The notes beneath the pieces are model-generated. The model worked only from the letters and a program-made list of their open reading frames with translations. It did no database searches and was not told where the DNA came from. Positions 2,450 through 64,000 of a stretch of 64,000 bases of DNA are shown here, one piece after another (the first letter of the stretch is position 1; each line of letters starts with the position of its first letter). The stretch is from assembly GCA_030599585.1 (NCBI GenBank), contig JAUVNS010000003.1, forward strand, positions 128,001 to 192,000. Reading direction: 5' to 3'. A program made the position numbers and the translations under genes. This stretch comes from Promethearchaeota archaeon (GTDB lineage: Archaea > Asgardarchaeota > Lokiarchaeia > Sigyniarchaeales > SOKP01).

Positions 2450-4789
2450 TTGGTTAGTGAAAATAATATGAAAGCAATGTCGAATAAAGTTTATGAACGG
2501 GCTGAAAAATTCATTCCATGGAATATTTTTCGTTATATTTATAATAACGAAGCATTTCCATATTGGATTGGAGATCTTGATAGCTTTTGGTATTTAAAAT
2601 GTTCTCGAGATGGGAATAAATTCATCTTTGTAGATGCTAAGCAAAATACAGTTAAACCAGCATTTGATCACGCTAAACTTGCAGAAAACTTATCTAAAGT
2701 GACACATAAAGCTATAGAACCAAATGAAATACCATTTAGAAGCATTGAATACTCTAACGATTTTAAATCAATTAAATTTGATGCTTTTTATACAAAGTGG
2801 ATTTGTGACTTAGATTCTTATAAATGCATAAAGGAAAAACGAGGTAGCTTCATCTCTAAGAATGCGATTATATCACCAAATAAAAATTATGTTGTTTTTA
2901 AGAAGGGTCACAATATCTTTATACGTACCTTAACTGATCGGACGAAATATGCATTAACCGATGATGGAAAACCAAACTACGAATATGGAAGCTCCACAGA
3001 ATGGAATGGTGCTGAAGTATCAGATCGAATAATGGGGCTCAGTAACCCTCCGATTGCGATGTGGTCACCTGACTCAAAAAAAATAATCGTTCATAAGCTC
3101 GATCAAAGAGATGTAAAAGATTTCTACCTACTTCAATCAATACCAAATGATGGGAGTTCACGACCTAAACTTTACTCTTACAAATATCCGTTACCAGGTG
3201 ATAAACACACAGGTACGGCTGAACTAGTCATCTTAGATGTAGAGAATAAAAAAAAGATAGTTGCAGATTATGGGGCTGTATCAGTTCACCTTCGCACTCC
3301 TATTGAAGAAGATCACGTTTGGTGGAGTGAAGATAGTAAATATGTATATTTCATTGACCTTGAATGTGGTTATAAAAAAATGAAGTTATGTGAAGTGGAT
3401 GCGAATACAGGATCTACTCGAGTAATTATTGAAGAAGAGAGCTCGACATTTATTAGTCCTGTCATTATGCTACAGGCAGATCGCAAACCCAACATAAAAA
3501 TCGTGAATGAAGGTAACGAGTTAATTTGGTTCTCAGAAAGAGATGGATGGGCACACCTTTATCTTTACGATGCGAAAACCGGAATTTTAAAAAACCAAAT
3601 TACTTCAGGCGAATGGGTTGTACAAAATATAAAGCACATAGATGAAAAAAAGCGTAGGATCTTCTTTACTGCTGGAGGTAAAGAAGTAGACAGTGATCCA
3701 TATCTAAGTAAACTTTATTGTATTAATTTTGATGGCAAAAATATGAAATTGCTTACTCCAGAAGATGCTAACCATTTCATTAAATTTTCAGGTACAGGTA
3801 ATTATTTTGTTGATGTTTACTCAAAAATTAATACAACTCCAAAGATGGTGCTTCGCGACGCTGATGGACAATTAATTTGTGAAGTAGATGAAGCCAATAT
3901 TGAAGAACTTCTTAATAGGGGGTGGATATTGCCTGAACCCGTTAAAATTAAAGCCCGAGATGGAAAAACGGATATATATGGTAGCATCTTTAGACCAACA
4001 AACTTTAACCCAGCATTAAAATATCCTGTTATTAATGTGGTTTATCCTAACCCTTATGTTATTTTTACATCTAAATCATTACCTTCACATTTCGACCCAA
4101 GTGGAATGTTACTTTATTGGGAATTGCAAGCTCTTGCCGAAGTAGGATTTATCGTAATTACAATTGATGGTTTTGGAACACCATTAAGATCAAAAAGATT
4201 TCATGATTATTCATATGGTAATCTTGGAGATTGTGGCTTAGAAGATAATATTTCTGCTATTAAACAGTTGGCAAATCAATATTCTTATATCGACTTGGAA
4301 CGAATAGGAATATACGGGCATTCTGGGGGAGGGTATGCCTCCGCTAGAGCTATACTTAAATACCCTGATTTTTATAAAGTAGCAGTGGCCTCTGCTGGAA
4401 ACCACGATCAACTAAGTTACATGGCAGATTGGGGTGAACACTTTCAAGGTATGCTGGAAGGAGATAATTACAAGAATCAGGCTAATTCTGAGTTAGCTAA
4501 AAATTTGAAAGGAAAATTACTGCTTGTGTATGGTGAATTAGATGACAATGTCCATCCTTGTATGACAATCCAGTTAATAAACGCTTTAACTAAAGCCAAT
4601 AAAGATTATGACCTTGTAATTCTACCAAATCGAAATCATACTTTAGTTATTGACCCTTATTTTATTCGAAAAAGATGGGATTATTTCGTGCAACACTTAT
4701 TAAACCAAGTTCCACCCTCAGAATACGAAGTAAAAGGAATTGATCCTGAACTCTTAACTCGATTAATGTATTACACCGTAATTAAATAA
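2450..4789 (+). CDS. S9B dipeptidyl peptidase IV-like protein
   Basis: DPPIV beta-propeller (WSPDSKK, SERDGWAHLY), nucleophile GHSGGG, DDNVH and NRNH catalytic Asp/His. Confidence 0.92.
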   Translation: MVSENNMKAMSNKVYERAEKFIPWNIFRYIYNNEAFPYWIGDLDSFWYLKCSRDGNKFIFVDAKQNTVKPAFDHAKLAENLSKVTHKAIEPNEIPFRSIEYSNDFKSIKFDAFYTKWICDLDSYKCIKEKRGSFISKNAIISPNKNYVVFKKGHNIFIRTLTDRTKYALTDDGKPNYEYGSSTEWNGAEVSDRIMGLSNPPIAMWSPDSKKIIVHKLDQRDVKDFYLLQSIPNDGSSRPKLYSYKYPLPGDKHTGTAELVILDVENKKKIVADYGAVSVHLRTPIEEDHVWWSEDSKYVYFIDLECGYKKMKLCEVDANTGSTRVIIEEESSTFISPVIMLQADRKPNIKIVNEGNELIWFSERDGWAHLYLYDAKTGILKNQITSGEWVVQNIKHIDEKKRRIFFTAGGKEVDSDPYLSKLYCINFDGKNMKLLTPEDANHFIKFSGTGNYFVDVYSKINTTPKMVLRDADGQLICEVDEANIEELLNRGWILPEPVKIKARDGKTDIYGSIFRPTNFNPALKYPVINVVYPNPYVIFTSKSLPSHFDPSGMLLYWELQALAEVGFIVITIDGFGTPLRSKRFHDYSYGNLGDCGLEDNISAIKQLANQYSYIDLERIGIYGHSGGGYASARAILKYPDFYKVAVASAGNHDQLSYMADWGEHFQGMLEGDNYKNQANSELAKNLKGKLLLVYGELDDNVHPCMTIQLINALTKANKDYDLVILPNRNHTLVIDPYFIRKRWDYFVQHLLNQVPPSEYEVKGIDPELLTRLMYYTVIK

Positions 4790-4805
4790 ATTAATAAGAA
4801 TAAAA

Positions 4806-5918
4806 GTGAGAAAAATCATGAACTTAGATTTACCTTCGAAAGAAGCAAAATTAATAGTAGATTATAGTGTTAGTGTTCAAAAGGGAGAAACAGTTGTAAT
4901 TTGGGGCTCTACAGAATCAATTCCATTAGTAAAAGAATTATATAGAGAGGTTATTAAAGCAGGTGGACATCCAATTACCAAGTTAGATGTTCCTGGTTTA
5001 CCATATATCATGTACTCTGAGGGAAAAAGTTTTCAATTAAGACATCCTAATCCTCTGCTTTTATATTTAGTTAAAAATGTTGATGTTGCAATAAGAATAC
5101 GTGCACCTTCTAACCCTGAAGAAATATCTAATATCGACACTAAGAAGACATCAAAATATTCGAGATCATTCGCTGAATTCTATCAAACTTTTTTCCAACG
5201 CCAGGCAACCGGGGCACTAAAATGGATAGTGGCACCATACCCTACCGAAGGGGCTGCACAACATGCAAAAATGAGCTATGAAGAATACTGGAATCTGGTT
5301 GAAAAGTCTCTTTTTCTAGACAAAATTGATCCTATCGGAGAATGGAAAGAATTATCTCGTAAACAACAAATTTATTGTGACTTTTTAGACAATGCAGATA
5401 AGATAAGGATAAAAAATAAGGGTACTGATTTGGAATTTTCTGTAAAAGGAAGAAAATGGTTAAATTTTGATGGAAAAAAAGATCTCCCCGATGGAGAGAT
5501 ATTCACAGGACCAATTGAAGATTCTGCTAATGGATATATAACTTTTTCATTTCCTGGAGTTTATCAGGGACAAACTTTAGAAAAAATTTATCTAAAATTT
5601 AAAAACGGACAAGTAATTGAAGCTAAAACTTCTACTAATCAAAATCTGCTAGACGAAATTTTAAGAATACCCGGTTCTGATCGTATTGGTGAATTTGGAA
5701 TAGGTACTAATCCAACCATGGATAAGTATATAAAAAACATCTTATTTGATGAAAAAATTGCTGGTACTATCCACTTAGCATTAGGATTAGGTTACCCCGA
5801 CACAGGAAGCAAAAATAAGGGTGAGATACATTGGGATATTCTTACTGATATGCGGGATGAGGGAGAAATCTATTCGGATGGTAAATTAATTTACCAAAAA
5901 GGAGTTTTTTTGATTTAG
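4806..5918 (+). CDS. M29 aminopeptidase (aminopeptidase T/II type)
   Basis: LPDGEIFTGP, GEFGIGTN, LFDEKIAGTIHLALG and IHWDI motifs. Confidence 0.92.
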   Translation: MRKIMNLDLPSKEAKLIVDYSVSVQKGETVVIWGSTESIPLVKELYREVIKAGGHPITKLDVPGLPYIMYSEGKSFQLRHPNPLLLYLVKNVDVAIRIRAPSNPEEISNIDTKKTSKYSRSFAEFYQTFFQRQATGALKWIVAPYPTEGAAQHAKMSYEEYWNLVEKSLFLDKIDPIGEWKELSRKQQIYCDFLDNADKIRIKNKGTDLEFSVKGRKWLNFDGKKDLPDGEIFTGPIEDSANGYITFSFPGVYQGQTLEKIYLKFKNGQVIEAKTSTNQNLLDEILRIPGSDRIGEFGIGTNPTMDKYIKNILFDEKIAGTIHLALGLGYPDTGSKNKGEIHWDILTDMRDEGEIYSDGKLIYQKGVFLI

Positions 5919-6020
5919 ATAAATTAAAGAATTAAATTTTAAGAAATAAATCTTATCGTAAATTTAATAATAGAAAAATTCTGAAGTTATTATATTAATA
6001 TAAAATCAATACACAATAAG

Positions 6021-7634
6021 TTGACGATAATGGAAATACCAAAATTAGATTATTTATGGCAACATGTTCACCACTGGGCTTCTATCGACCCTGATTTTCC
6101 ATATATTAGGTTTAAATGGAAAAAATATAACGCTAAACAATTTGCTGAAACAATTGATCATTTAGCAGAAGCTTTTTTAAGTTTAGGGGTTGAAAAAGGA
6201 GATACAATCGTCACTATTTTACCTATGATAATGGAATATCCATTGATATATTTAGCGGCTAACTCTATTGGTGCTATGTGTGTTCCGATGGATGTAAAAT
6301 TCAGACCTGCTGAATATCGTCGATTTATTCCTCATGTAAATCCAAAACTTGTGGTTTTAATAGGAAAAGCGAGAGGATATGATATCGCCAATACCATTCA
6401 AGAGCTCAATCCCGGATTTAATCCTAATATAAAATACTTCTTGATAGGAAGAGACGAATTTGGAACACCCTTTGATAGTTTGTTAGAAAAAGACTATGGA
6501 TTATCTGAAGAATTAAAACAAAGAAGAAAGGAATTAAATCCTGATGAAGGCGCTCTTATCATTTTCACAGGAGGAACAACAGGAGTACCGAAAGCAGCAA
6601 TGTTAACCCATAGAAATATTGCACACGCAAGCTACTTAGAAGCAACTTATATCCATGAAAAAGGAATTCCTTTAGGATTAAGACCCAGATTTAAAATGAT
6701 AAACGCATTTCCTCCAAGCCACGCAGGTGGTTCAGTTGAAATTATGGGTACTGCTATAGTTGCGGGATGTGAGATTGTACTCCAAGAACAATGGAATCCC
6801 TATAATATATTGAGAGCAACAAGGAAGTGGAAGTTGCAATTGATAGGTGGAGTGCCAACTATGTATGCTATCACATTAAGCTTGCCAGATTTAGATGAGT
6901 TTGACACTTCTTCGCTTATACTAGCAATTGTAAGCGGAGAGAAACTAAGTATGGATTTACTGACTGGAATGCGAGATAAAATTTGTCCTAATATTCTCAA
7001 TGCATATGGAAGTACTGAATCTGGCCCTGAAGTAACGTTTACAGATATAGGGGATCCTTTAGAAGAATTAGCAAATGGTTACATCGGTCGTTTATTACCA
7101 GAACAAGAAATGAAAATTGTAGATAAAGAAAATAATGAATTACTCCCTGGTGAGATCGGTGAAATGTTATTTAAAGGGACCTTAACTATTCCTGGATATT
7201 ATAAGATGCCAGAAGAGAATAAAGCAACTTTTACTAAGGATGGATGGTGTAGATCTGGAGATCTAGGCTATATTACTAAAGATGGGAAAATCTATATTAA
7301 GGGTAGGTTGAAATTTATCATCCGTGTTGGTAGTTATACCGTTCTCCCCTCTGAAGTTGAAAGCGTAGTGTTAGAGCACCCTAAAGTTGCCATGGCAGCA
7401 GCAGTAGGAGTACCTGACAAGATTTACAATGAAGTAGTGTGGATTGCAATAGTTCCTGAAGCAGGTCAAGATGTTGATGAAAAGGAAATTATTGAGTTAT
7501 GCAATAAAGAGCTCGCTAATTTTAAAGTTCCAAAAAAAGTCGTAATTATGAAAGAATTACCAATTACTAGACTTGCTAAAGTTGATAGACCAACGATTCT
7601 GCAGCAGTTTATAGAGAAATATAACTTAAAGTAG
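6021..7634 (+). CDS. Class I adenylate-forming enzyme (acyl-CoA ligase)
   Basis: FTGGTTGVPK P-loop, YGSTE, GDLG, GRLK and FKVPK; the true start may be the ATG at 6030. Confidence 0.9.
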   Translation: MTIMEIPKLDYLWQHVHHWASIDPDFPYIRFKWKKYNAKQFAETIDHLAEAFLSLGVEKGDTIVTILPMIMEYPLIYLAANSIGAMCVPMDVKFRPAEYRRFIPHVNPKLVVLIGKARGYDIANTIQELNPGFNPNIKYFLIGRDEFGTPFDSLLEKDYGLSEELKQRRKELNPDEGALIIFTGGTTGVPKAAMLTHRNIAHASYLEATYIHEKGIPLGLRPRFKMINAFPPSHAGGSVEIMGTAIVAGCEIVLQEQWNPYNILRATRKWKLQLIGGVPTMYAITLSLPDLDEFDTSSLILAIVSGEKLSMDLLTGMRDKICPNILNAYGSTESGPEVTFTDIGDPLEELANGYIGRLLPEQEMKIVDKENNELLPGEIGEMLFKGTLTIPGYYKMPEENKATFTKDGWCRSGDLGYITKDGKIYIKGRLKFIIRVGSYTVLPSEVESVVLEHPKVAMAAAVGVPDKIYNEVVWIAIVPEAGQDVDEKEIIELCNKELANFKVPKKVVIMKELPITRLAKVDRPTILQQFIEKYNLK

Positions 7635-53226: not shown

Positions 53227-54333
53227 ATGTTTCAATTATTTAAGTATACAGCCATGAAAGCTAAATATATATTAGGGCTCGATATTGGAGGAGCAAATAC
53301 TAAGGCTGCTTTACTTCAAATCGAAAACGATAACATACATAAAAGTTTTACTTATATTGAATATTTTCCTTTCTGGGAGAAAACCTTGCATGACATTCCT
53401 GCTATGTTCTCGAGGGTTGTAGAAAAGTTAATTATACAAAATAATTTAGTATTAAGAGATGTAACCTTTATTTCAATAACAATTACTGCTGAACTTTCAG
53501 ATGCTTTTCAAACTAAGCGAGAAGGAATTTTAACGATTATAAGCGCTTTAGGACAAATTTTTGAAAGGGAAAAATTATTTTTTATTAATAATAGAAATAA
53601 ATTCTGCAGCTTTGATCAGGTTAAATTAGATCCTATTTCAGTAGCGGCAGCAAATTGGATATCAACTTCGTTATTTTTAGGTAAATTTGTTCCCAAATGC
53701 ATTCTTATTGATGCTGGGTCGACTACTATTGATGTAATTCCAATTTTAAATTCAGTTCCTGTTTCAAGAGGAAAGAATGATGTAGAAAGATTAATGAATC
53801 GCGAATTGATTTACACCGGGGGTTTAAGAGCAACAATTCCATCAATTACGCATTTTTTACCTTATAAGGATAAGATGATTAGAATTTCGTTCGAAAAATT
53901 CGCCCTCGTCTCAGATGTACATAGGATACTAAAAAATATTTCTGAAACAGAATATATTAACGACACTGCCGATAATCGCTCAAAAACCTTAAAGGATTGC
54001 TATGCGCGATTAGCAAGAATGATATGCATGGATCTTGAATCAATTACACTAAAAGAATTGGATAAAATAGCGAAATATATTTATAACAAGCAAATTAAGA
54101 TGATTTCATCTGATATCAAAGAGTTTATGGACAACCTAAATCAACAACAGCTTGAGTATGATCAAGATTCAATATTTGTAATTACTGGCTTATCTGCAGA
54201 GTTTTTGATAAAAGAAGTGTTAAGAAGAATGGGATATGGCAATATTAAAAGCTTTGAACAAATAACTGGGATGCCTGATCAAATTAGTTCCTCTGCATAT
54301 GCAGTTGCGGGAGCTTTTTATTTTCAATTATAA
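53227..54333 (+). CDS. mfnF: Methanofuran biosynthesis protein MfnF (hydantoinase A-like)
   Basis: GLDIGGANTK, YFPFW, TAELSDAF..KREG, AAANW, DAGSTTID, ELIYTG and RLARMIC. Confidence 0.83.
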   Translation: MFQLFKYTAMKAKYILGLDIGGANTKAALLQIENDNIHKSFTYIEYFPFWEKTLHDIPAMFSRVVEKLIIQNNLVLRDVTFISITITAELSDAFQTKREGILTIISALGQIFEREKLFFINNRNKFCSFDQVKLDPISVAAANWISTSLFLGKFVPKCILIDAGSTTIDVIPILNSVPVSRGKNDVERLMNRELIYTGGLRATIPSITHFLPYKDKMIRISFEKFALVSDVHRILKNISETEYINDTADNRSKTLKDCYARLARMICMDLESITLKELDKIAKYIYNKQIKMISSDIKEFMDNLNQQQLEYDQDSIFVITGLSAEFLIKEVLRRMGYGNIKSFEQITGMPDQISSSAYAVAGAFYFQL

Positions 54334-54348
54334 AACAAATTAATCAAT

Positions 54349-55086
54349 ATGAAGTATAAAGAAGCGGTCTTCAAAATTGGTGGAAAAATTTTAGAAAACT
54401 CAAACAATATTAAATCAACTTTCTCCCAACTGACTCAATTATTCGAAGAAAAAATTCTTCAGAAAATCATTATTATCCCCGGTGGGGGATCTTTGGCTAA
54501 TTTTGTTAGAAGCTTGGATGACGCTTTACAAATAGGAGACGACCTAGCTCATTGGAGTGCGATTTATTCCATGAATTATAACGGAATAATGTTAAATAAA
54601 AAATATCCGAATTTGGAAAGTATAGAAAAATTAAAGAATTTTCAAGATGCTAAACAAATGTTTTGTATCTTCTTACCATATAGTTTTCTCCGTGAAGACG
54701 ATACTCTACCACATAATTGGGATGTCACTTCGGACTCTATAGCACTCTATGTTGCTAATAAGCTAAAATTAAGGCAATGTTTCTTAATCAAAAATATAGA
54801 TGGAATTTTCAATATCGATAAGGAACTAATTAAGTCTATATCTACTTTCAAATATAACGAGTTAAAAAATAGTAATCAATTAGATAATATAATAGAAGTC
54901 GATAGTAATATTAAGAAATCGAAACCTATAGATTCACATTTATTGAAATTAATAGAAAAGTACAATACTCCTTGTTATATCTTAAATGGAGGACCTAGTA
55001 ATCAAAGGATAATTGAATTTTTTACTACTGACATACCTGATGAGAAAAAAATATATACTAAACTCATCAGTCAAAAAGAACTCTAA
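54349..55086 (+). CDS. mfnE: Amino-acid-kinase-family protein, MfnE-like
   Basis: KIGG, PGGG..ANFVR, AHW.AI and LPHNWDVTSDSIA; adjacent to mfnF. Confidence 0.8.
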   Translation: MKYKEAVFKIGGKILENSNNIKSTFSQLTQLFEEKILQKIIIIPGGGSLANFVRSLDDALQIGDDLAHWSAIYSMNYNGIMLNKKYPNLESIEKLKNFQDAKQMFCIFLPYSFLREDDTLPHNWDVTSDSIALYVANKLKLRQCFLIKNIDGIFNIDKELIKSISTFKYNELKNSNQLDNIIEVDSNIKKSKPIDSHLLKLIEKYNTPCYILNGGPSNQRIIEFFTTDIPDEKKIYTKLISQKEL

Positions 55087-55179
55087 AGTTATGAATAACC
55101 TCAAATATTAGGTTAATTTAAACAAAATTAAACTAGTTAAATTATTAAATGTGAATATAAAATATGAAGTGAAATCATT

Positions 55180-55680
55180 ATGGATATCGAAGAAATGAAA
55201 AAAAATGCCGAATTTTTAATAAAAAATGTTAAGGGAGTAGAAATTCCTGGAGCTGCTAAAGTTAACGTTAGATATAAAACTTTAGTGAACTTTGCAAAAG
55301 TATATGGAATAACTGACCCGAAATACATTGGTTCTGAAGAAGATGGTATAATAGCCTGCCATGCGTTTGCCAACCATTTCACGATCAAAGCAGTTTACAA
55401 ATTACTCTTAGGTTTTAATGTAGTTCAGGACGGTAATACACGGGGAATAATGCTAGATCCTGGTAAATTATTACACACCGGAAATATCTACAATTGGGAA
55501 GGTTGTGTTGATGTCAAACCTGGTGATAAATTAAATGTTAGTGGTTCATGTGAAGATGTGTGGTTAAATGAGAAAAATATGATATTATTTTATAAATTCT
55601 TAGTTAATGTTAAAAATCAAAATGAAGAACCCGTTTGCGATGTGGTAATTACTGCAGGGGTTAGGAAAGGAGGGTATTAA
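55180..55680 (+). CDS. Hot-dog fold MaoC-like subunit (non-catalytic type)
   Basis: FAKVYGITDPKY, LLHTG..Y.W and VKPGD; 1 bp from the next gene. Confidence 0.75.
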   Translation: MDIEEMKKNAEFLIKNVKGVEIPGAAKVNVRYKTLVNFAKVYGITDPKYIGSEEDGIIACHAFANHFTIKAVYKLLLGFNVVQDGNTRGIMLDPGKLLHTGNIYNWEGCVDVKPGDKLNVSGSCEDVWLNEKNMILFYKFLVNVKNQNEEPVCDVVITAGVRKGGY

Positions 55681-55681
55681 A

Positions 55682-56230
55682 ATGGTAAAGATATCAGATT
55701 ATAGTGTAGGGTATGTAGTAAAAGATCAGTTTGAGGGCGTTACTAGGGATTTATTGAGGCAATACGCAAAAGCATCCGGTGATACTAACCCAATCCACAC
55801 CAATGATGCTATTGCTGAACGAGCAGGGTTAAAAGGAATAATAGCACATGGTTTATTTTCTACCGGCTTAATCACAAAATTATTTGAGGACCATTTGGAA
55901 TATGAGAAGTCAGGAAAGTTAATAGAAGTCAATATAGAAATGCGGGGAATGGTAAGGTGTGGAGATCTAATTATTACTGAAGCTACAGTCAAAAAAATTG
56001 AAGGAAAGAGGGTGTTTTTTGAAGTTGAACAACGGACGATAACAAATGTAGACATTAAAGATACAAATGGAAATCTTGTGAAGCAATTCGAAGCAGGCGA
56101 GAGAGGTTATATTTCTGAAAAAGATATTGAAAGAGGACTTGTTAAAACCAAGGATACTCCAGAAGGAATTCTTACGTATAGGGAGAGGATTGCTACTCCT
56201 GGAACTGCAATTATAGAGTTATTCGAGTGA
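55682..56230 (+). CDS. MaoC family (R)-enoyl-CoA hydratase/dehydratase
   Basis: YAKASGDTNPIH...IIAHG motif. Confidence 0.88.
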   Translation: MVKISDYSVGYVVKDQFEGVTRDLLRQYAKASGDTNPIHTNDAIAERAGLKGIIAHGLFSTGLITKLFEDHLEYEKSGKLIEVNIEMRGMVRCGDLIITEATVKKIEGKRVFFEVEQRTITNVDIKDTNGNLVKQFEAGERGYISEKDIERGLVKTKDTPEGILTYRERIATPGTAIIELFE

Positions 56231-56391: not shown

Positions 56392-59301
56392 TTGACGATT
56401 CAGAATTTAGATGTAAAAAAGGTTGAAGATCTAATTTTAAGTGGTAGCTACGAAAAAGCAGCTGATGAGCTGTTTAAAGTAATTGAAAATTCTGCAATTT
56501 CTGACAAAGAACTAATCTATGACAGCTTAACGTTATTAAATAAAATATGTGACAAATCTCCAACAATTTCCTTAAGAACAGTTAGAAATTTAAACAACAC
56601 CATAAACGACATGAATTCTTGGGTTAGGTTAGTGTCATTAGAAATACTTTACCAAATAACTATGTATCGACCGAATCTACTGATTGATCTAATCGATAAG
56701 ATTCGATCCCGGTTATTTGACCAAGAATCATCAATTCGACGCTTAGCTGTAAAAATTATGGGAAATTTAATTCTTTCGTTACATATCGATAGGGAGCAAC
56801 TACAAACAATAATTGAGGAATTTCTCGAAAAATTGATGGATACGGATTGGAAAGTGAAGCTTCAAGTATTTAAAACGCTGAAAAAAATTCTGAACCAAGA
56901 TTATACAAAGATTCGAGAATTCGAACCTTTACTATCTATTGTTATAGTAAATTTGAGAGACGAAGATGATGATGTTGCCAGATCAGCGGCAGAGTTGTTA
57001 AAAATACTTGGTACTTATTTTCTCTCAAAAGAAAAAATTACTTTTGTCCTACTTAACCTACTCTATAACGAAAAACCAAGAGTAAAAGAGTTAATCATAT
57101 GGCTTTTCGGAGAAATAGGAAAAGAAAAATCGTCCGAAATCATCCCTATTATTCCTAAGCTTATAAATTTATTAAAAGAGAATAATTATCGAATTCAATT
57201 AAGAGTAATTGATTCACTAGTAACAATAGCGGAGAATAATTTTGATCAAATTTGGGCTAATTTAATAACCGCACTCTATACCGGAGATTCTGAGTTTAGA
57301 AATGTGGTTATAAACGCATTATATCATCTATGTCAAAACAATATCACGGAAATTTTTAGTTATATATTTGAGGAATTTGAAAATCCATCAGAAAACGTTC
57401 GGGATGGCGTTTCGCTGGTTTTTAAACGTTTATACGAAGAATTTTTAGTCGAAATAGAAAACGAGATTACAAAAATACTTTATACTTTAGAATCAAAATA
57501 CTGGCGAGAGAGAAAAAAAACAATAATCCTATTACAAAATATCTGCAATATTTTGCAAAGTAAGAAAATAGCAGTCTGGCTTTTTATCGAGCTGGAGAAA
57601 AATTTAAAAACTGAAACTGATCCGGATGTAAATGAAGAGATTCTTTACACGATTAAAAACATTAAAACGACATTTCACGATATGGACGAAACAATTCAAG
57701 AAGTTAATGAAGATTTAGATATGTTTCGTAAAAAAATTAGTGAATTTCAGAAGATTCCCGCTCAATTCCGGGAAAAGATGAGTTCTTACATAAAAGAATT
57801 CAAATTTCAGCAAACAGAATTAGAATTAGATAAAATCTATCGTAAAATATTAAATAAAATTAAGAAGTTTAATAAAAGATTAAACAAGTTCGAGTACAAA
57901 AGGCTAGCGTTCAATTTAATTGAAGACTGGGAAGAAACTAAAGTAACCATCATTGACGAACTAAGCATTATTAAAGGATTCATTTCCGAGGTCTTTGTAG
58001 AAAAGAAGAAGGAATTTACATTAGATTTAAAATCGAAGATTAAGCTTTTAGAAGATCGTATCAATATATTAAAAGCCCAGTATGAATATGCTAGAAATTC
58101 TAAATTTTTGGAAACACTCGATGAACAAAGCTTAGAGAATATTGGAAATTCGGATGTCGAAGAAAAATTTACTGAAATCACGCAGTTTCGAAATTATATG
58201 TTTAAATTGGATGACGACATTCGGGAAATTCTCGTACATAACGTTGAATTTAACGAAATTTTTAAGTCTTTGCTAAGCAAATGGGTCGGATTGAAAATTG
58301 AACTACAAGAATTTTTAAGCGAGCTAGATCGAAAAATAAAAAGCTTGAAAGATAGAATCTTAATAGAAATTCAAAAATCTGATGGAAATCACGAAGAACA
58401 AAAATTAAATCTCATTTCATCTGTATTATTTCAAGGTCACATTCAATCAATAATTTCGCAAGGTATTGAAGGATTAAAGAAGTTCAATACTAATTTTGAT
58501 GGTTTAAAAACTAAGTTGGATACTTTATTAAAAAAAAGTGAGTTTTCTGACGCAAAAAAACTTATAGAAATGAACACGAACCAAATTCAAAATTTTATTG
58601 TAGAATACGAGAATCAGATTGATAATATAATAGGGAAACTCACTGAAGATAATGATATTTTTAACCTGTGGGCAAGGCCAACCGTAACTAAATTTGTTTC
58701 GTTTAAAGAAGTTCTTATAAACAAATTGAAAAACTTTAATCAGAAGAGTAATGACGAACTTACTCTGAGTCAAATAAAATATTATCTTGATGTGATGAAC
58801 CCTATCAAATTAGAAAGTCTCGCTTCTTATATTGATGCGGACATTGATGTGTTAAAGGAAAAGATTGTAAAATTTGTTAATAAGAATAAACTTAATGCTC
58901 GAATTATAAAAGATGACCTCTATTCACCAAAAATAGAAGATATTATCGAACCAAAAGATATTCTTTTGTTTAAGAATTTAAAAACAATTGGGAATAAGCT
59001 CTATTTTAACTTTAAATTAAATAATCCTACAAATTTACTTTTTTCGGATTTACAAATATCTCTTAAGACCCCTGATTATTTAACTTTTCTTCGAAGCGAA
59101 AGTTTTCCTAAATATCTTTATCTCAGCAAATTAAAGCCAGGAAATGTTTTTAAGTTTAATTATGTCTTAAAATTACAGCATGATATCAAAAAAAACATAG
59201 CAGATCCATCAGTTGACGAAGTAGATCTTAATATTTATTATAAAGATCCATTCGACATCACACGAAAAATTACAAAAAAAATGTCACTCCTTTTACCTTA
59301 A
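56392..59301 (+). CDS. HEAT-repeat protein with coiled coil, PCI-like winged helix and C-terminal beta-sandwich
   Basis: About 9 HEAT units (D...VR/VK), a helical middle, PIKLESLASY...LNARI, and a beta-rich C-terminus. Confidence 0.8.
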   Translation: MTIQNLDVKKVEDLILSGSYEKAADELFKVIENSAISDKELIYDSLTLLNKICDKSPTISLRTVRNLNNTINDMNSWVRLVSLEILYQITMYRPNLLIDLIDKIRSRLFDQESSIRRLAVKIMGNLILSLHIDREQLQTIIEEFLEKLMDTDWKVKLQVFKTLKKILNQDYTKIREFEPLLSIVIVNLRDEDDDVARSAAELLKILGTYFLSKEKITFVLLNLLYNEKPRVKELIIWLFGEIGKEKSSEIIPIIPKLINLLKENNYRIQLRVIDSLVTIAENNFDQIWANLITALYTGDSEFRNVVINALYHLCQNNITEIFSYIFEEFENPSENVRDGVSLVFKRLYEEFLVEIENEITKILYTLESKYWRERKKTIILLQNICNILQSKKIAVWLFIELEKNLKTETDPDVNEEILYTIKNIKTTFHDMDETIQEVNEDLDMFRKKISEFQKIPAQFREKMSSYIKEFKFQQTELELDKIYRKILNKIKKFNKRLNKFEYKRLAFNLIEDWEETKVTIIDELSIIKGFISEVFVEKKKEFTLDLKSKIKLLEDRINILKAQYEYARNSKFLETLDEQSLENIGNSDVEEKFTEITQFRNYMFKLDDDIREILVHNVEFNEIFKSLLSKWVGLKIELQEFLSELDRKIKSLKDRILIEIQKSDGNHEEQKLNLISSVLFQGHIQSIISQGIEGLKKFNTNFDGLKTKLDTLLKKSEFSDAKKLIEMNTNQIQNFIVEYENQIDNIIGKLTEDNDIFNLWARPTVTKFVSFKEVLINKLKNFNQKSNDELTLSQIKYYLDVMNPIKLESLASYIDADIDVLKEKIVKFVNKNKLNARIIKDDLYSPKIEDIIEPKDILLFKNLKTIGNKLYFNFKLNNPTNLLFSDLQISLKTPDYLTFLRSESFPKYLYLSKLKPGNVFKFNYVLKLQHDIKKNIADPSVDEVDLNIYYKDPFDITRKITKKMSLLLP

Positions 59302-59433
59302 TATTTTATACGATTTTTTGTCTGGACAGATAAAAAACCCACCTTACTTATCGAAAAAATTTATAAAAATTAGCGATTAAATTAATAACTAAAAAATTCA
59401 CAATAATAATAAGTAATAATAAGTAAAAAATTC

Positions 59434-59443
59434 GTGAGGTGAA
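59434..59443 (+). promoter_or_regulatory. Shine-Dalgarno site of selD1
   Basis: GTGAGGTGAA directly before ATG 59444; the same motif precedes selD2. Confidence 0.7.
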
Positions 59444-60481
59444 ATGTTACAAGAAGAAGAGAGTTATCGACTGACGCTCCAAACGAAATTATTCGGATGA
59501 AACTGTAAATTAGACTCCAAAAAGTTAAATGAACTTCTAAATAACGCTGGTTTAATTGGAGATATAGAGGATTCAGCAATAATACCTGTTCCAGGCACCG
59601 ACTTAGCAATGGTAAAAAATATTGATGTCTTTACCCCAATTATCGACGAGCCAGAAATAATGGGGGAAATCGCCGCAGCAAATGTAACCAATGATGTATT
59701 TGCGTTAAATGTTCCAGAAATCTCAGGTATGCTTGTATTTCTCGGGATCAAAAAAAATACGCCTATGTACATCGCAGAAGGGATATTAGTAGGAATTCGA
59801 AACTTTATCGAAAATAAAGTAGACTCAAAAGTACTTGGTGGTCATACAATCTACTCAGGATGGCCTCTTATTGGCGGAGAAGCTTCTGGATTTGTTAACA
59901 AAGACAAAATAATTAAAAAGAATTACGTAGAAGATGGGGATACATTAATACTAACCAAACCCGTAGGAAATCAAGCAATCATGGCAGCATATCGACTACA
60001 GAAAAACAACCCTGACCTTTTAAAGGCTTTTTCTAAAGAAGAAATTGATAAATCAATAGATTTAGCCGTAGAATATATGACTATGCCTCTCCAAAGCGTT
60101 GTTAAAGCTATCCACACTTATGAAGATGTATCTTTCGTACATTCAATGACAGATGTTTCTGGATTTGGACTCTCAGGACATTTAAAAGAGATGCTTCAAA
60201 ATTCAAAGCTATCAGCTGAAATCAAGAAGGTTCCTATATTTAAACTAACTAAGGAGTTAGCATACGAATTTGGATACAAATTTGACGAGTGTGAAATGCC
60301 TGAAACTGCGGGTGGAATGCTATTATCCGTGGATCATGAATATGCTGAAGAGTTTTCTGAACGACTCGACAACGAATTTCACGTGTCTAATTGGATTGTT
60401 GGATCAATCGATAACAAAGATGACCCTCGGCGTGTCCGCGTTTCAAAAAACGTTGAACATGTCGAAATAACTGAAATATAA
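59444..60481 (+). CDS. selD: Selenophosphate synthetase 1, selenoprotein (345 aa, Sec19 = TGA 59498-59500)
   Basis: In-frame extension of track ORF 59609: MLQEEESYRLTLQTKLFG-U-NCKLD...EDSA..., then IDVFTP, AANVTND, GGHT, LTKP, TDVSGFGLSGH and ETAGGML. Confidence 0.92.
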
Positions 60482-60553
60482 CGATGTTAATGAAATAAGC
60501 TAAAACACGCTAAGTGGCTGCTTATTGAAAATTTCCGTTGCAAGACGGCATCG
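60482..60553 (+). promoter_or_regulatory. Eukaryote-like SECIS element (3' UTR of selD1)
   Basis: AUGA (60490-93)...GA (60527-28) core, helix AUAAGC/GCUUAU, apical AAAA plus CAC/GUG mini-stem; conserved after selD2. Confidence 0.85.
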
Positions 60554-60937
60554 ATAATATCATCTGTTTTTATTTTAAAAATTATTAATTTTTCTTAAGT
60601 TTAGAATTGGATAAATTTCTATCCTTCCATTCTTTTAAGTACCATTTCAAAAAATTAGTTGAAACACCTATAGAATTTCTTTTATGATAAAAGAAATCTT
60701 CAATTTTTTTTTGTTTTACCCGGAAATTAAACATAAAATAAATTTACTTAAGGTATTCTTAGTTACTCCCAACAACTAATTTTAAATTAAAGATACTATA
60801 ACATGGGTGTAACATTTATCTTAAAATTGAATGTGTCTGTTTATCAAAAAAATTGATAAATAATATCGAAAATTTTAATAAATCGCAATTATTGATTGAA
60901 TTACCTTTAAAATAGAAAATGCTTATGGTAAAAAAAA

Positions 60938-62230
60938 ATGATTGGAGAAAAACCGGATTGGTATCCAATGTGGAGAGAGTTGGGAATAGATATTGAAAAG
61001 CATGACCAATTACTAGCAGTACTTCCTGATGCGTTTAAAACAATATATATTGACTCGCAAATAAATAGACCGAAAAATATGGCATTTTGGGATTTCGTAG
61101 TTGGAGATATTCACGGGTTGCGTGTAAGTGAATTGAAGAAAGCAAAAGAAGAAGGAAAGAAGGTAATCGGTACTTTTTGCCTTTATATACCTGATGAAAT
61201 AATCGTTGCTTTGGATGCAATCGGAATTGGATTATGTGGTGGTACGAATTTTTCAAATTTTGCATCAGAAAATCTTTTACCAACGAATATTTGTGCTTTA
61301 ATTAAATCAGCATTAGGTTTTGGTATTGGAAATGTCTGTCCGTATTTTGCAATAACCGATTTGTTAATTGGAGAAACTACATGTGATGGTAAGAAAAAAG
61401 CGTGGGAGATTTTAAATGACTATAAACCCGTATATATCGTGGAAACTCCACAGTGCAAAACAAGACCACAAGCGCGAGCGCATTTTATTGAGGAACTTAA
61501 AGCACTTATCATAAAACTTGAAGAAGTCACTGGAAATATACTTACTGCTGAAAAATTAAAAAAAGCTATGGAAAAAATTTCTAAAAAGAGAAAACAATTA
61601 AAGCGAGTCTATAATACTCGAAAATTTGATCCTGTTCCAATTTCAGGAAAAGATGGATTATTGGTTTCGCAAATAGCTTTTTATGATGACCCCGATAGAC
61701 AAATTGAAATGATTGGAAAGTTAGCTGATGAGTTAGAACAACGAGTTAAAAATGGGGAAGGAATTACTGATAAAGATACAAAAAGAATTTTATTAAGTGG
61801 GACACCTATGGCAATTCCTAATTGGAAAATCCATCACTTAGTTGAGACCAAGGGAGCCGTAATTGTTGCTGAAGAAACATGTACAGGGACAAGATATTTT
61901 CAATCAGAATTTGAAGAAAAATTGGGAGAAACCATCGCTGATCTTATTGAGCAATTAGCCGATCGATATTTAGGAATCAATTGTGCCTGTTTTACTCCAA
62001 ATATCGGACGAAAAGAAGATATTTTAAGACTTGCAAAAGAATACAAAGCAGATGGGATAATTCTTTATACATTAAATTTCTGCCAACCATACGATATTGA
62101 GGCAGTTATATTAGAAAAAGAGTTAAAAAAAGCTGGATTTCCTGTTCTTTCAATTAATACTGATTATTCTTCAGATGACGAAGGACCGCTTAACACAAGA
62201 ATTGAAGCATTCCTTGAAATGCTAAAATAA
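60938..62230 (+). CDS. Double-cubane-cluster reductase / 2-hydroxyacyl-CoA dehydratase (HgdB/YjiM) family protein
   Basis: GTFCLY, GLCGG, NICALIKS, CPYF, ETTCDGKKK, EETCTG, CAC, FCQPY and TRIEAFLEML. Confidence 0.87.
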   Translation: MIGEKPDWYPMWRELGIDIEKHDQLLAVLPDAFKTIYIDSQINRPKNMAFWDFVVGDIHGLRVSELKKAKEEGKKVIGTFCLYIPDEIIVALDAIGIGLCGGTNFSNFASENLLPTNICALIKSALGFGIGNVCPYFAITDLLIGETTCDGKKKAWEILNDYKPVYIVETPQCKTRPQARAHFIEELKALIIKLEEVTGNILTAEKLKKAMEKISKKRKQLKRVYNTRKFDPVPISGKDGLLVSQIAFYDDPDRQIEMIGKLADELEQRVKNGEGITDKDTKRILLSGTPMAIPNWKIHHLVETKGAVIVAEETCTGTRYFQSEFEEKLGETIADLIEQLADRYLGINCACFTPNIGRKEDILRLAKEYKADGIILYTLNFCQPYDIEAVILEKELKKAGFPVLSINTDYSSDDEGPLNTRIEAFLEMLK

Positions 62231-62348
62231 ATAGATTTTTCATAGCTAATTCAAACTATTAGAATTATAATGTAATTATTATATTTGATGTATATACTAA
62301 AAATTAAATTTTTCCAAGATTTTAATAGATATTAATAAAGCATTTAAA

Positions 62349-62359
62349 GTGAGGTGAAA
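62349..62359 (+). promoter_or_regulatory. Shine-Dalgarno site of selD2
   Basis: GTGAGGTGAAA directly before ATG 62360. Confidence 0.7.
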
Positions 62360-63388
62360 ATGAAAAAAATACCAGAATATCGATTGACAAAGCAAGTTAA
62401 AATCTATGGATGATCGTGCAAACTTGGTGCAAATCAATTAGACGAATTACTAGAGAAAACTGGCTTAAAGGGATTTATTGAAGATGCTGCTATTGTGCCT
62501 GTTCCAAATTCCGACATGGTTCAAGTGAAAAGTATAGATATCTTTACTCCGCTTGTAGATGAACCAGAAATAATGGGCGAAATCTCTGCATGTAACGTTA
62601 CAAATGATATATTTGCGATGAATGTTCCAGAAGTTTCAGGAATGCTTGTATTTTTAGCGATCAATAAAAACACTCCAATGAAAATCGCAGAAGGAATTCT
62701 TAGGGGAATTAGCAGGTTTATGGAACAAAAAATAAATTCCAAAGTGGTGGGAGGTCATACGATTTATAGCGAGTGGCCTCTTATTGGTGGAGAAGCGTCT
62801 GGTTTTGTGGATAAAAACAAATTAATCCGGAAACACGGTGTGAAAAAAGGCGATAAATTACTCTTAACAAAACCTATTGGATTACAACCAATTATGGCAG
62901 CGTATAGGATACAGAAAGATTTTCCGGATATGCTGGAGGAATTTTCATCGAATGAGCTCAATAAATCGATTGAGTTAGCTATAAATCTTATGACAACATC
63001 TAATCAAGGCGTAGTAAAGACGATTTATACGTATGATGATTTCTCTTTTATTCATGCTATGACCGATGTTACCGGTTTCGGATTATCTGGCCATTTAAAG
63101 GAAATGCTTCAAAATTCTGGATTATCTGCAGTTATTGAGACTGTTCCTTCAATTAAGTTCTCAAAAAAACTCTCTGAGGAATATGGATACAGTTTTAACG
63201 ATTGTTCCTGCTCCGAAACAGCCGGAGGTATGCTACTAGCTATCGATCCGAGCAAAGTAGAAGACTTTTCTAACGCGCTCTCCAGTAATGACATTTCTAA
63301 TTGGATTGTTGGTACTATTGATACCAAAGAAGATGAACTTGTAAGGATATCGAAAGAAGTTAAACAGATTGAAATAACTAAAATATAA
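62360..63388 (+). CDS. selD: Selenophosphate synthetase 2, selenoprotein (342 aa, Sec18 = TGA 62411-62413)
   Basis: In-frame extension of track ORF 62495: MKKIPEYRLTKQVKIYG-U-SCKLG...EDAA..., then IDIFTP, CNVTND, GGHT, TDVTGFGLSGH and ETAGGML. Confidence 0.92.
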
Positions 63389-63458
63389 TGATGTCAATGA
63401 AATAAGCTAAAACACATATGTGGGTGCTTATCGAGAATACCGTTGCTCCACGGCATCA
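63389..63458 (+). promoter_or_regulatory. Eukaryote-like SECIS element (3' UTR of selD2)
   Basis: AUGA (63397-400)...GA (63433-34), AUAAGC/GCUUAU, AAAA, CAC/GUG; same architecture as 60482-60553. Confidence 0.85.
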
Positions 63459-63656
63459 ATTTTTTACCAAATTATCTTTTTCTCTCTTTTTACTCGTAAT
63501 AGGAAAAAAACCTTCCCAAATTAATTTTTTAAAAAGAAATGTGTGAATACACCTTTAGATTTAAAATTATAAGTGGAAATATTCGATATTAACTCGAACT
63601 TAAGTTTATATTTCCTCATTTTCTTCTTACTACAAAAGGAAAGAAAAATATCTAAA

Positions 63657-64000
63657 ATGGCAAAGAATAAGGATTACTATAAAATTCTCGAAATAGAAGA
63701 AGATGCTTCTGAAGAAGAAATTAAACTAGCTTATCGGAGATTAGCGAAAAAATTTCATCCTGACCTTAATAAAACCGATTCCCATGCCAAAGAGAAATTT
63801 ATAGAACTACATGAAGCTTATGACACGTTAGTAAATCCTATAAGAAGAAAAATCTACGATCAAGCAGGGTATAATCCAAGAAATATAGATCTAAGTGATT
63901 TGTTTTGGCGAAACAATTTTAGGGGATTTAAGGATATATTAAGGCAAATCTACGCGTCTAACAGTAGAATACCCAAAGTAAAACCTCCACCTGAAGGAAT
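63657..64000 (+). CDS. J-domain (DnaJ-domain) protein; runs off the window end
   Basis: Manual translation [38 protein letters not shown]...[18 protein letters not shown], with the HPD motif. Confidence 0.9.

Follow-up and report, generated by a model that had tools for sequence, protein, structure and literature searches.

The question raised by the locus considered here is why one archaeal genome should carry two neighbouring selD genes for selenophosphate synthetase, each with a UGA in frame where the catalytic residue is encoded. The locus belongs to a stretch of 64,000 nucleotides (the window) of a Promethearchaeota archaeon (assembly GCA_030599585.1, contig JAUVNS010000003.1, positions 128,001 to 192,000), an organism placed in Promethearchaeota/Lokiarchaeia by the names of its close database relatives. 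The assembly holds two selD genes only, designated here selD-A and selD-B; both lie on the forward strand, as do all the mapped features of the window given below. The explanation that we favour, and hold to be probable, is that selD-B is a core copy and selD-A an optional, separately tuned one, within a LysR-controlled selenium unit that would also contain sulfur/selenium carriers and a double-cubane cluster protein (DCCP).

With the TGA read as selenocysteine (Sec), selD-A occupies positions 59444-60481 and encodes 345 amino acids, with U19 (TGA at 59498-59500) in the motif GUNCK, and selD-B occupies positions 62360-63388 and encodes 342 amino acids, with U18 (TGA at 62411-62413) in the motif GUSCK. 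Each gene contains a single internal TGA and ends with a TAA stop. The same Shine-Dalgarno sequence, GTGAGGTGAA, precedes both ATG codons, at 59434-59443 for selD-A, where it is kept in relatives, and at 62349-62358 for selD-B. Plain open reading frame calls open late, at 59609 and 62495, respectively, and the NCBI entry for selD-A is a truncated form of 290 amino acids. Against the TIGR00476 selD profile (cut-off 125), the full-length proteins scored 178 bits (selD-A) and 198 bits (selD-B), with matches beginning at residues 8-9, i.e., upstream of the UGA. So, the statements of an earlier note on this DNA, that the called frames lack the SelD N-terminus and that the true starts are the ATGs at 59444 and 62360 behind a common Shine-Dalgarno sequence, were confirmed.

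Both proteins contain the domains AIRS (PF00586) and AIRS_C (PF02769), and with the archaeal equivalog NF010705 they reached 267 and 277 bits for selD-A and selD-B, respectively, near but under the cut-off of 291. They could be aligned to the solved SelD/SPS structures 3U0O, 2YYE and 3FD5 of the Protein Data Bank, and all of U19, K22, D43, D61, N80, D84, GHT 133-135, D237 and E287 (selD-A numbering) are retained in the two copies. Considering these residues, it seems very probable that both genes give active selenophosphate synthetases.

Concerning the decoding of the UGA, the Sec codon was TGA in 51 of 51 homologues. The pooled ratio of nonsynonymous to synonymous substitution rates (dN/dS) was 0.074 for selD-A and 0.078 for selD-B over the 12 codons preceding the TGA, and 0.105 and 0.116 after it, these values being derived from pooled pairwise counts among kin that are not independent. 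They indicate purifying selection on both flanks of the UGA. Directly 3′ of the stop codon, each gene has an element composed of an AUGA..GA core, a short stem, an AAA bulge and a mini-stem, which corresponds to a Sec insertion sequence (SECIS) of the type II lokiSECIS kind. That of selD-A spans 60482-60555, with the AUGA at 60490, its GA partner, the AAA bulge, the apical mini-stem and an extra 3′ hairpin; that of selD-B spans 63389-63459, with the AUGA at 63397. When 70 such elements were analyzed for covariation, 96.7% of the cells were paired and changes on both sides were found in 17 of 19 pairs, which exceeded all 500 shuffles and all the slid controls. The additional hairpin (60534-60551 and 63440-63455), placed between the GA core and the lower stem so as to form a three-way junction, showed changes on both sides in 5 of 5 pairs. 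An Rfam search returned no family corresponding to the selD SECIS. Folding of the sequence just 3′ of the UGA gave no convincing structure (z of −0.2 and −0.6), which argues against a bacterial-type SECIS. The earlier note was silent on the two 3′ elements, as it was on the significance of the gene lying between the copies.

The machinery for Sec synthesis and insertion is present in the genome. SecS scored over its family cut-off, a PSTK-like gene matched with an E value of 5e-45 (155 bits, below the family cut-off of 290), and a SelB/EFSec-like gene (232 bits, below the family cut-off of 242) lies approximately 4 kb from secS. The tRNA-Sec gene, of about 150 nt, starts at position 16776 of contig C28, just upstream of secS, and is split by two introns, one of 28 nt in the anticodon loop and one of 30 nt in the T loop. 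In this split form it was overlooked by both Rfam RF01852 and ARAGORN, relaxed ARAGORN settings producing noise; it was located with the genes of relatives as queries, and after removal of both introns ARAGORN calls it as tRNA-SeC(UCA). Several near-complete relatives with no RF01852 match may conceal a tRNA-Sec likewise. Other selenoprotein genes of the genome encode HdrA, MvhD and Prx-like proteins and carry type I SECIS elements. Judged from the invariant TGA, the selection ahead of it, the one SECIS per gene and the Sec machinery, both selD genes are almost certainly UGA-recoded selenoprotein genes, as the earlier note had proposed.

With respect to the history of the pair, the two copies share 62.7% amino-acid identity, with a dS of about 1.6, and in 27 genomes from two genera (26 besides the present one) they occur in the same order and spacing, following a HEAT-repeat gene. 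Among 251 genomes sampled evenly across the phylum, two selD copies were confined to these two genera of one family. In a first selD tree, selD-A forms a single clade with support 100/100 and a stem branch of 0.30; a larger tree, built with FastTree, does not settle the root among the B lineages. The pair is an old tandem duplication. Within the two genera, 27 loci have both copies, 15 (continuous loci) have selD-B only and none has selD-A only, and approximately eight independent losses can be placed on the larger tree, all of them of selD-A and none of selD-B. In comparisons with family-level rows, unique changes were more numerous in A than in B in 21 of 21 cases, with p<0.05 in 16 of them, and selD-B resembles the single selD of other genera.

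The earlier note had regarded both the motifs GUNCK and GUSCK and the mere presence of two Sec-type copies as unusual, and neither opinion was borne out. GUSCK is the norm: 13 of 14 order-level outgroups have it, and the Asgard SelD alignment already in print (PMC11227280) contains it 193 times, with 54 occurrences of GUNCK; the idea of GUSCK as an unusual motif was discarded on this basis. GUSCK represents the ancestral state of the motif, and GUNCK is a signature of the A clade. Multi-copy Sec-type selD in Lokiarchaeia is likewise already described in that survey. Some Asgard outgroups have GUSVK or GUACK, and one selD-A (genome G205, L090 3757-4791, minus-strand reading) has GUDCK in place of GUNCK. 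In another selD-A (genome G090, L086, around 4016-4046) a frame-breaking insertion of 31 nt follows one base past the Sec codon; it folds with a 4-bp helix and a 3-nt bulge, and may be a tRNA-type mRNA intron and not a lesion.

The residues fixed in selD-A are N20, S44, A79, N176, L216, S234, S239 and M285. Position 216 is N in 19 of 19 outgroups, aligned to an N of the E. coli and human enzymes, and L in 28 of 28 A proteins. In all these 28 proteins N216L is coupled with L176N, a coupling present in no other row. Further A-specific changes are S to N beside Sec and T to S within the TDVTG motif. It seems reasonable to read the N216L/L176N coupling as structural compensation, and not as damage, through a putative contact of the two residues; a single-sequence AlphaFold model of selD-A was unusable for this, with a predicted local distance difference test (pLDDT) value of 34.

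Concerning the regulation of the locus, the selD upstream regions share an element of 44 nt, located approximately 95–115 nt before the start, in which an ATC-N9-GAT-type palindrome is followed by a segment resembling a B recognition element (BRE) and TATA box. In the window, a putative LysR-type operator of this kind, with ATC-N9-[G/A/T]AT half-sites and the BRE/TATA-like segment, precedes the DCCP gene at 60839-60882 (43.7 bits, the top score of the genome) and, in a weaker form, selD-A at 59346-59389 (21.2 bits). The matrix yielding these scores was built from the selD promoters of relatives, with the present genome left out. Above 17 bits it found three sites in 4.85 Mb: those before DCCP (60839) and selD-A (59346), and one before dsrE-tusA in contig C9. 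The fixed operator pattern occurred twice in the window and not once in 100 shuffles, and of its 35 exact matches in a further 36 genomes, 33 fell at selD, DCCP or lysR/dsrE/tusA promoters. The box precedes DCCP genes even when they are far from selD, and also split yedE-like genes; in relatives with no DCCP gene, the element of the DCCP promoter sits directly before selD-B. The first box is mostly ATC..AAT before selD-A (18 of 24) and ATC..GAT before selD-B (21 of 31). In the present genome selD-B has no strong box of its own (6 bits); this score and the preceding tally come from a later matrix that is not independent, its sites having been chosen with the first one. selD-B may be transcribed through from the DCCP promoter or from a separate promoter. 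A sigma-70 promoter scan stayed at chance level, with a model that is unsuited to archaea.

The operator of contig C9 is located in the gap that separates dsrE from a LysR gene of divergent orientation (99961-100863). The product of this LysR gene is the only match of the genome to NF040786 (selenium-associated LysR), by far its best family (E value of 7.5e-66), but with a score under the cut-off. A T-N11-A palindromic site is present at the target promoters and beside this regulator gene. While the motif is observed, we infer that it is the C9 LysR_Se/HrsM-like regulator that most likely binds the shared operator. The tusA-like and dsrE-like genes divergent from lysR (genome G000, i.e., the present one; contig C9, 99166-100863, L133) together resemble a split YedF. 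In two relatives (G007, L048 823-3947; G214, L104 667-3888), split yedE-like transporter and DsrE/TusC-like genes separate the operator from selD-B. In one genus of the family (G178, L182, approximately 4690-7416), lysR, dsrE, tusA and selD are adjacent, and a scan of this cluster with the operator matrix returned no box.

The gene between the two selD copies (60938-62230) encodes a DCCP of 430 amino acids, which matched NF040772 with 461 bits (cut-off 350). Its seven cysteines (81, 100, 119, 149, 315, 349 and 382) have spacings of 18/18/29/165/33/32, two spacers being one residue shorter than in the published pattern. A DCCP gene stands immediately upstream of selD-B in six loci from both genera, plus one remnant, and it is sandwiched between selD-A and selD-B in the present genome and in G003, G004 and G205. 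Of 71 genomes of the family, 17 have an ortholog, and the presence of this gene does not follow that of selD-A. No activase gene is adjacent to DCCP, and three TIGR00241 genes are found elsewhere in the genome. We know of no natural substrate for the double-cubane proteins.

The mechanism that we propose begins with a single tandem duplication, which would have taken place in a common ancestor of the two genera, both from the same Lokiarchaeia family. In both descendants EFSec and Sec-tRNA(Sec) would insert selenocysteine at the UGA under the direction of the 3′ type II SECIS of each gene, and both proteins, considering their intact catalytic residues, would most likely form selenophosphate from selenide and ATP. 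selD-B would have persisted as the conserved core copy, and selD-A would have changed faster after the split and then been frozen as an optional second enzyme. selD-A, DCCP with selD-B behind it, and the unlinked dsrE-tusA would be under one operator, most likely bound by a single LysR_Se/HrsM-like regulator. The operator is common to selD-A, DCCP and dsrE-tusA, and therefore the locus is probably a selenium-responsive unit. In it, selD-A would add separately tuned selenophosphate capacity, most plausibly under selenium scarcity, a direction taken by analogy with Methanococcus.

Several observations weigh against this explanation. The box of selD-A scores low (21 bits), and when the columns of the matrix were permuted, one matrix out of five gave 21.7 bits somewhere in the genome; the C9 LysR, with 222 bits, is under the NF040786 cut-off of 250. 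In many relatives a box is present before selD-B as well, so that the copies are not sharply distinguished by their regulation. The faster rate of selD-A was mostly not significant versus distant outgroups, some of the family-level rows may have branched off after the duplication, and all the counts include kin that are not independent of one another. Moreover, in one genome (G013) a deletion of selD-A fuses the two promoter boxes, and removal of selD-A would therefore be mechanically easy; the two SECIS repeats could delete selD-B just as readily, and such a loss was never observed.

Of the two alternatives that the earlier note had offered, subfunctionalisation or dosage, a divergence of roles fits the data better than pure dosage because of the one-sided losses, the A-specific fixed substitutions and the differing operators. 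Were dosage the whole explanation, A and B would be interchangeable and kept for selenophosphate flux in large selenoproteomes. It is in keeping with this that all the catalytic residues are found in both copies, that their dN/dS values are similar, that the same box can precede either copy and that Lokiarchaeia have the largest selenoproteomes among archaea, according to the 2024 survey (PMC11227280). It is not expected from it that some eight losses should all concern selD-A when deletion between SECIS elements could equally remove selD-B, nor that eight positions should be fixed in selD-A, and the MvhD-family totals were no higher in two-copy genomes (mean of 12.6 versus 13.6, Sec and Cys forms pooled). 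Pure dosage thus appears unlikely. A new activity or product of selD-A, such as a preference for another chalcogen or use as a donor for something other than Sec-tRNA, which would make it a Sec-retaining analogue of SPS1, would agree with its long stem branch, with the replacement by L of the N216 present in all outgroups, and with the changes beside Sec and in TDVTG. Since the replacement at 216 is paired with L176N as if by structural compensation, Sec and all the metal and ATP ligands are retained, and PMC11227280 reports no other selenium pathway in Asgard genomes, such a novelty seems quite unlikely. As for an SPS1-like loss of catalysis, it was ruled out, both copies keeping the UGA, the SECIS and every catalytic residue.

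The DCCP gene offers two further possibilities. That selD-A exists to supply the double-cubane protein would agree with the physical sandwich in four genomes, with its shared box, and with the origin of 955 of 970 NF040772 proteins above 400 bits in SelD genomes (preprint, bioRxiv 10.1101/2022.07.06.499078). But most of the searched A-carrying genomes do not have this DCCP, many DCCP-carrying genomes of the family have one selD match only, and G233 has DCCP and selD-B with no selD-A; this co-occurrence pattern largely refutes such a dedication, which is very improbable. Tentatively, and again as something unlikely, the locus might be a selenium-acquisition unit in which SelD-A would be kinetically distinct for low selenium and DCCP would take a direct part in selenium metabolism: it might reduce a selenium compound to selenide, passed by DsrE/TusA carriers to SelD, or it might hold a selenium-bridged double cubane made from selenophosphate. 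If true, this would be the first physiological role of a double-cubane enzyme. Finally, a pseudogene, an assembly duplicate or a UGA acting as a true stop with short N-truncated products can be considered in view of the 8.9% contamination of the assembly and the truncated products in databases. It is scarcely credible: the copies differ by the identity and dS given above and keep their order and spacing in the 26 other genomes, and truncated forms would lack U19 and K22. The pair is no artefact because it is an old tandem duplication found in 27 genomes, with dN/dS near 0.1 on both sides of the UGA, and the SECIS covariation refutes a true stop. The three findings by which the earlier note would have been refuted (a genome with no Sec machinery, no purifying selection ahead of the TGA, an artefactual second copy) were all contradicted by the data. 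The preferred explanation, that of a core copy B and an optional copy A, is retained.

As for the surroundings of the pair, the HEAT-repeat protein gene (Pfam HEAT, 56392-59301) is directly upstream of selD both within the family and among outgroups at the order level, so that it is an ancestral neighbour and a syntenic anchor outside the mechanism. Upstream of it, the region 53227-56230 contains Hydantoinase_A-family and amino-acid-kinase-family genes and then two MaoC-like dehydratase genes, this pair being syntenic in relatives. After selD-B, a short gene with only a J domain (DnaJ, about 115 amino acids, 63657-64000) is found in the closest relatives only.

The Sec-type selD, its SECIS and the multiple selD copies of Lokiarchaeia are already published, and the pair is largely known. 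For this lineage the core observation is an ordinary one: two gene calls that were too short are put right, and a pattern already in print is found once more. The 2024 survey (PMC11227280) left open the reason for several selD genes in Lokiarchaeia; the division into two clades, the losses limited to one of them and the residues diagnostic of each now provide defined A and B proteins for comparison. What is added is modest, and most of it lies in the connection of the double-cubane protein with the regulon. To our knowledge, double-cubane proteins were previously linked to selenium by co-occurrence only. Here, DCCP adjoins selD and has a promoter box common to selD, dsrE-tusA and yedE-like genes, even when unlinked, and therefore the double-cubane–selenium link becomes directly testable. 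In the searchable literature, which leaves out most subscription journals, no paper was found on the operator or on a DCCP-selD linkage in Asgard archaea.

Compared with known systems, the locus is closest to the Lokiarchaeota SPS (selD) selenoprotein and type II 'SPS lokiSECIS' of Mariotti et al. 2016 (PMC4989117). Both share the catalytic in-frame UGA, the stop-adjacent AUGA/GA SECIS with an apical mini-stem, the archaeal PSTK/SecS/EFSec set, the T-loop intron of tRNA-Sec and the nearby EFSec; they differ in that one SPS copy and the T-loop intron only were described there, whereas two copies and a second, anticodon-loop intron are found here. Huang, Xiao and Zhang 2024 (PMC11227280) counted 51 Loki-/Thorarchaeia organisms with at least two selD genes, and their alignment has GxNCK (54) and GxSCK (193) sequences, several of which bear the label of a second copy. 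The passages of their text that were covered make no mention of two paralog clades, of losses limited to one copy, of the operator or of the double-cubane neighbour found here. For DCCP, the likeness to the NF040772 family of bioRxiv 10.1101/2022.07.06.499078 lies in the score above cut-off, the seven-Cys pattern and the SelD genome. That preprint proposes a selenium-processing role or a selenium-bridged cluster; its SelD link is a phylogenetic profile in bacteria, whereas here the gene adjoins selD and shares its promoter box.

Regarding the regulator, Lin et al. 2015 (PMC5322559) tied LysR_Se gene families to selenium metabolism, HrsM being the archaeal LysR_Se, and in Slackia the top STRING partner of LysR_Se was a 2-hydroxyglutaryl-CoA dehydratase-family gene. 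A LysR beside DsrE-like and SirA/TusA-like genes, with links to selD and yedE, is common to those systems and the present one (PMC5322559; PMC11097638), the LysR found here being nearest to the NF040786 type, YedF of the LysR_Se neighbourhoods being made of SirA and DsrE domains (PMC5322559). In M. maripaludis, yedE rises under selenium starvation and HrsM is a repressor of Cys-isoenzyme hydrogenase genes (PMC11097638), while the predicted targets here are selD, DCCP, dsrE-tusA and yedE-like genes. No binding site is given by Lin et al. (PMC5322559), and a conserved putative operator is defined here.

With the metazoan pair SPS1/SPS2, invoked by the earlier note, there is in common a duplicated selenophosphate synthetase with asymmetric divergence. 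The analogy is weak: SPS1 is defined by the loss of Sec/Cys (bioRxiv 10.1101/2020.01.28.922716), and neither this loss nor that of a metal or ATP ligand is found in selD-A or selD-B, which keep Sec, SECIS and the catalytic set after a duplication local to one archaeal family. The pair is predicted to work like SelD/SPS2, and it is not of the SPS1 type.

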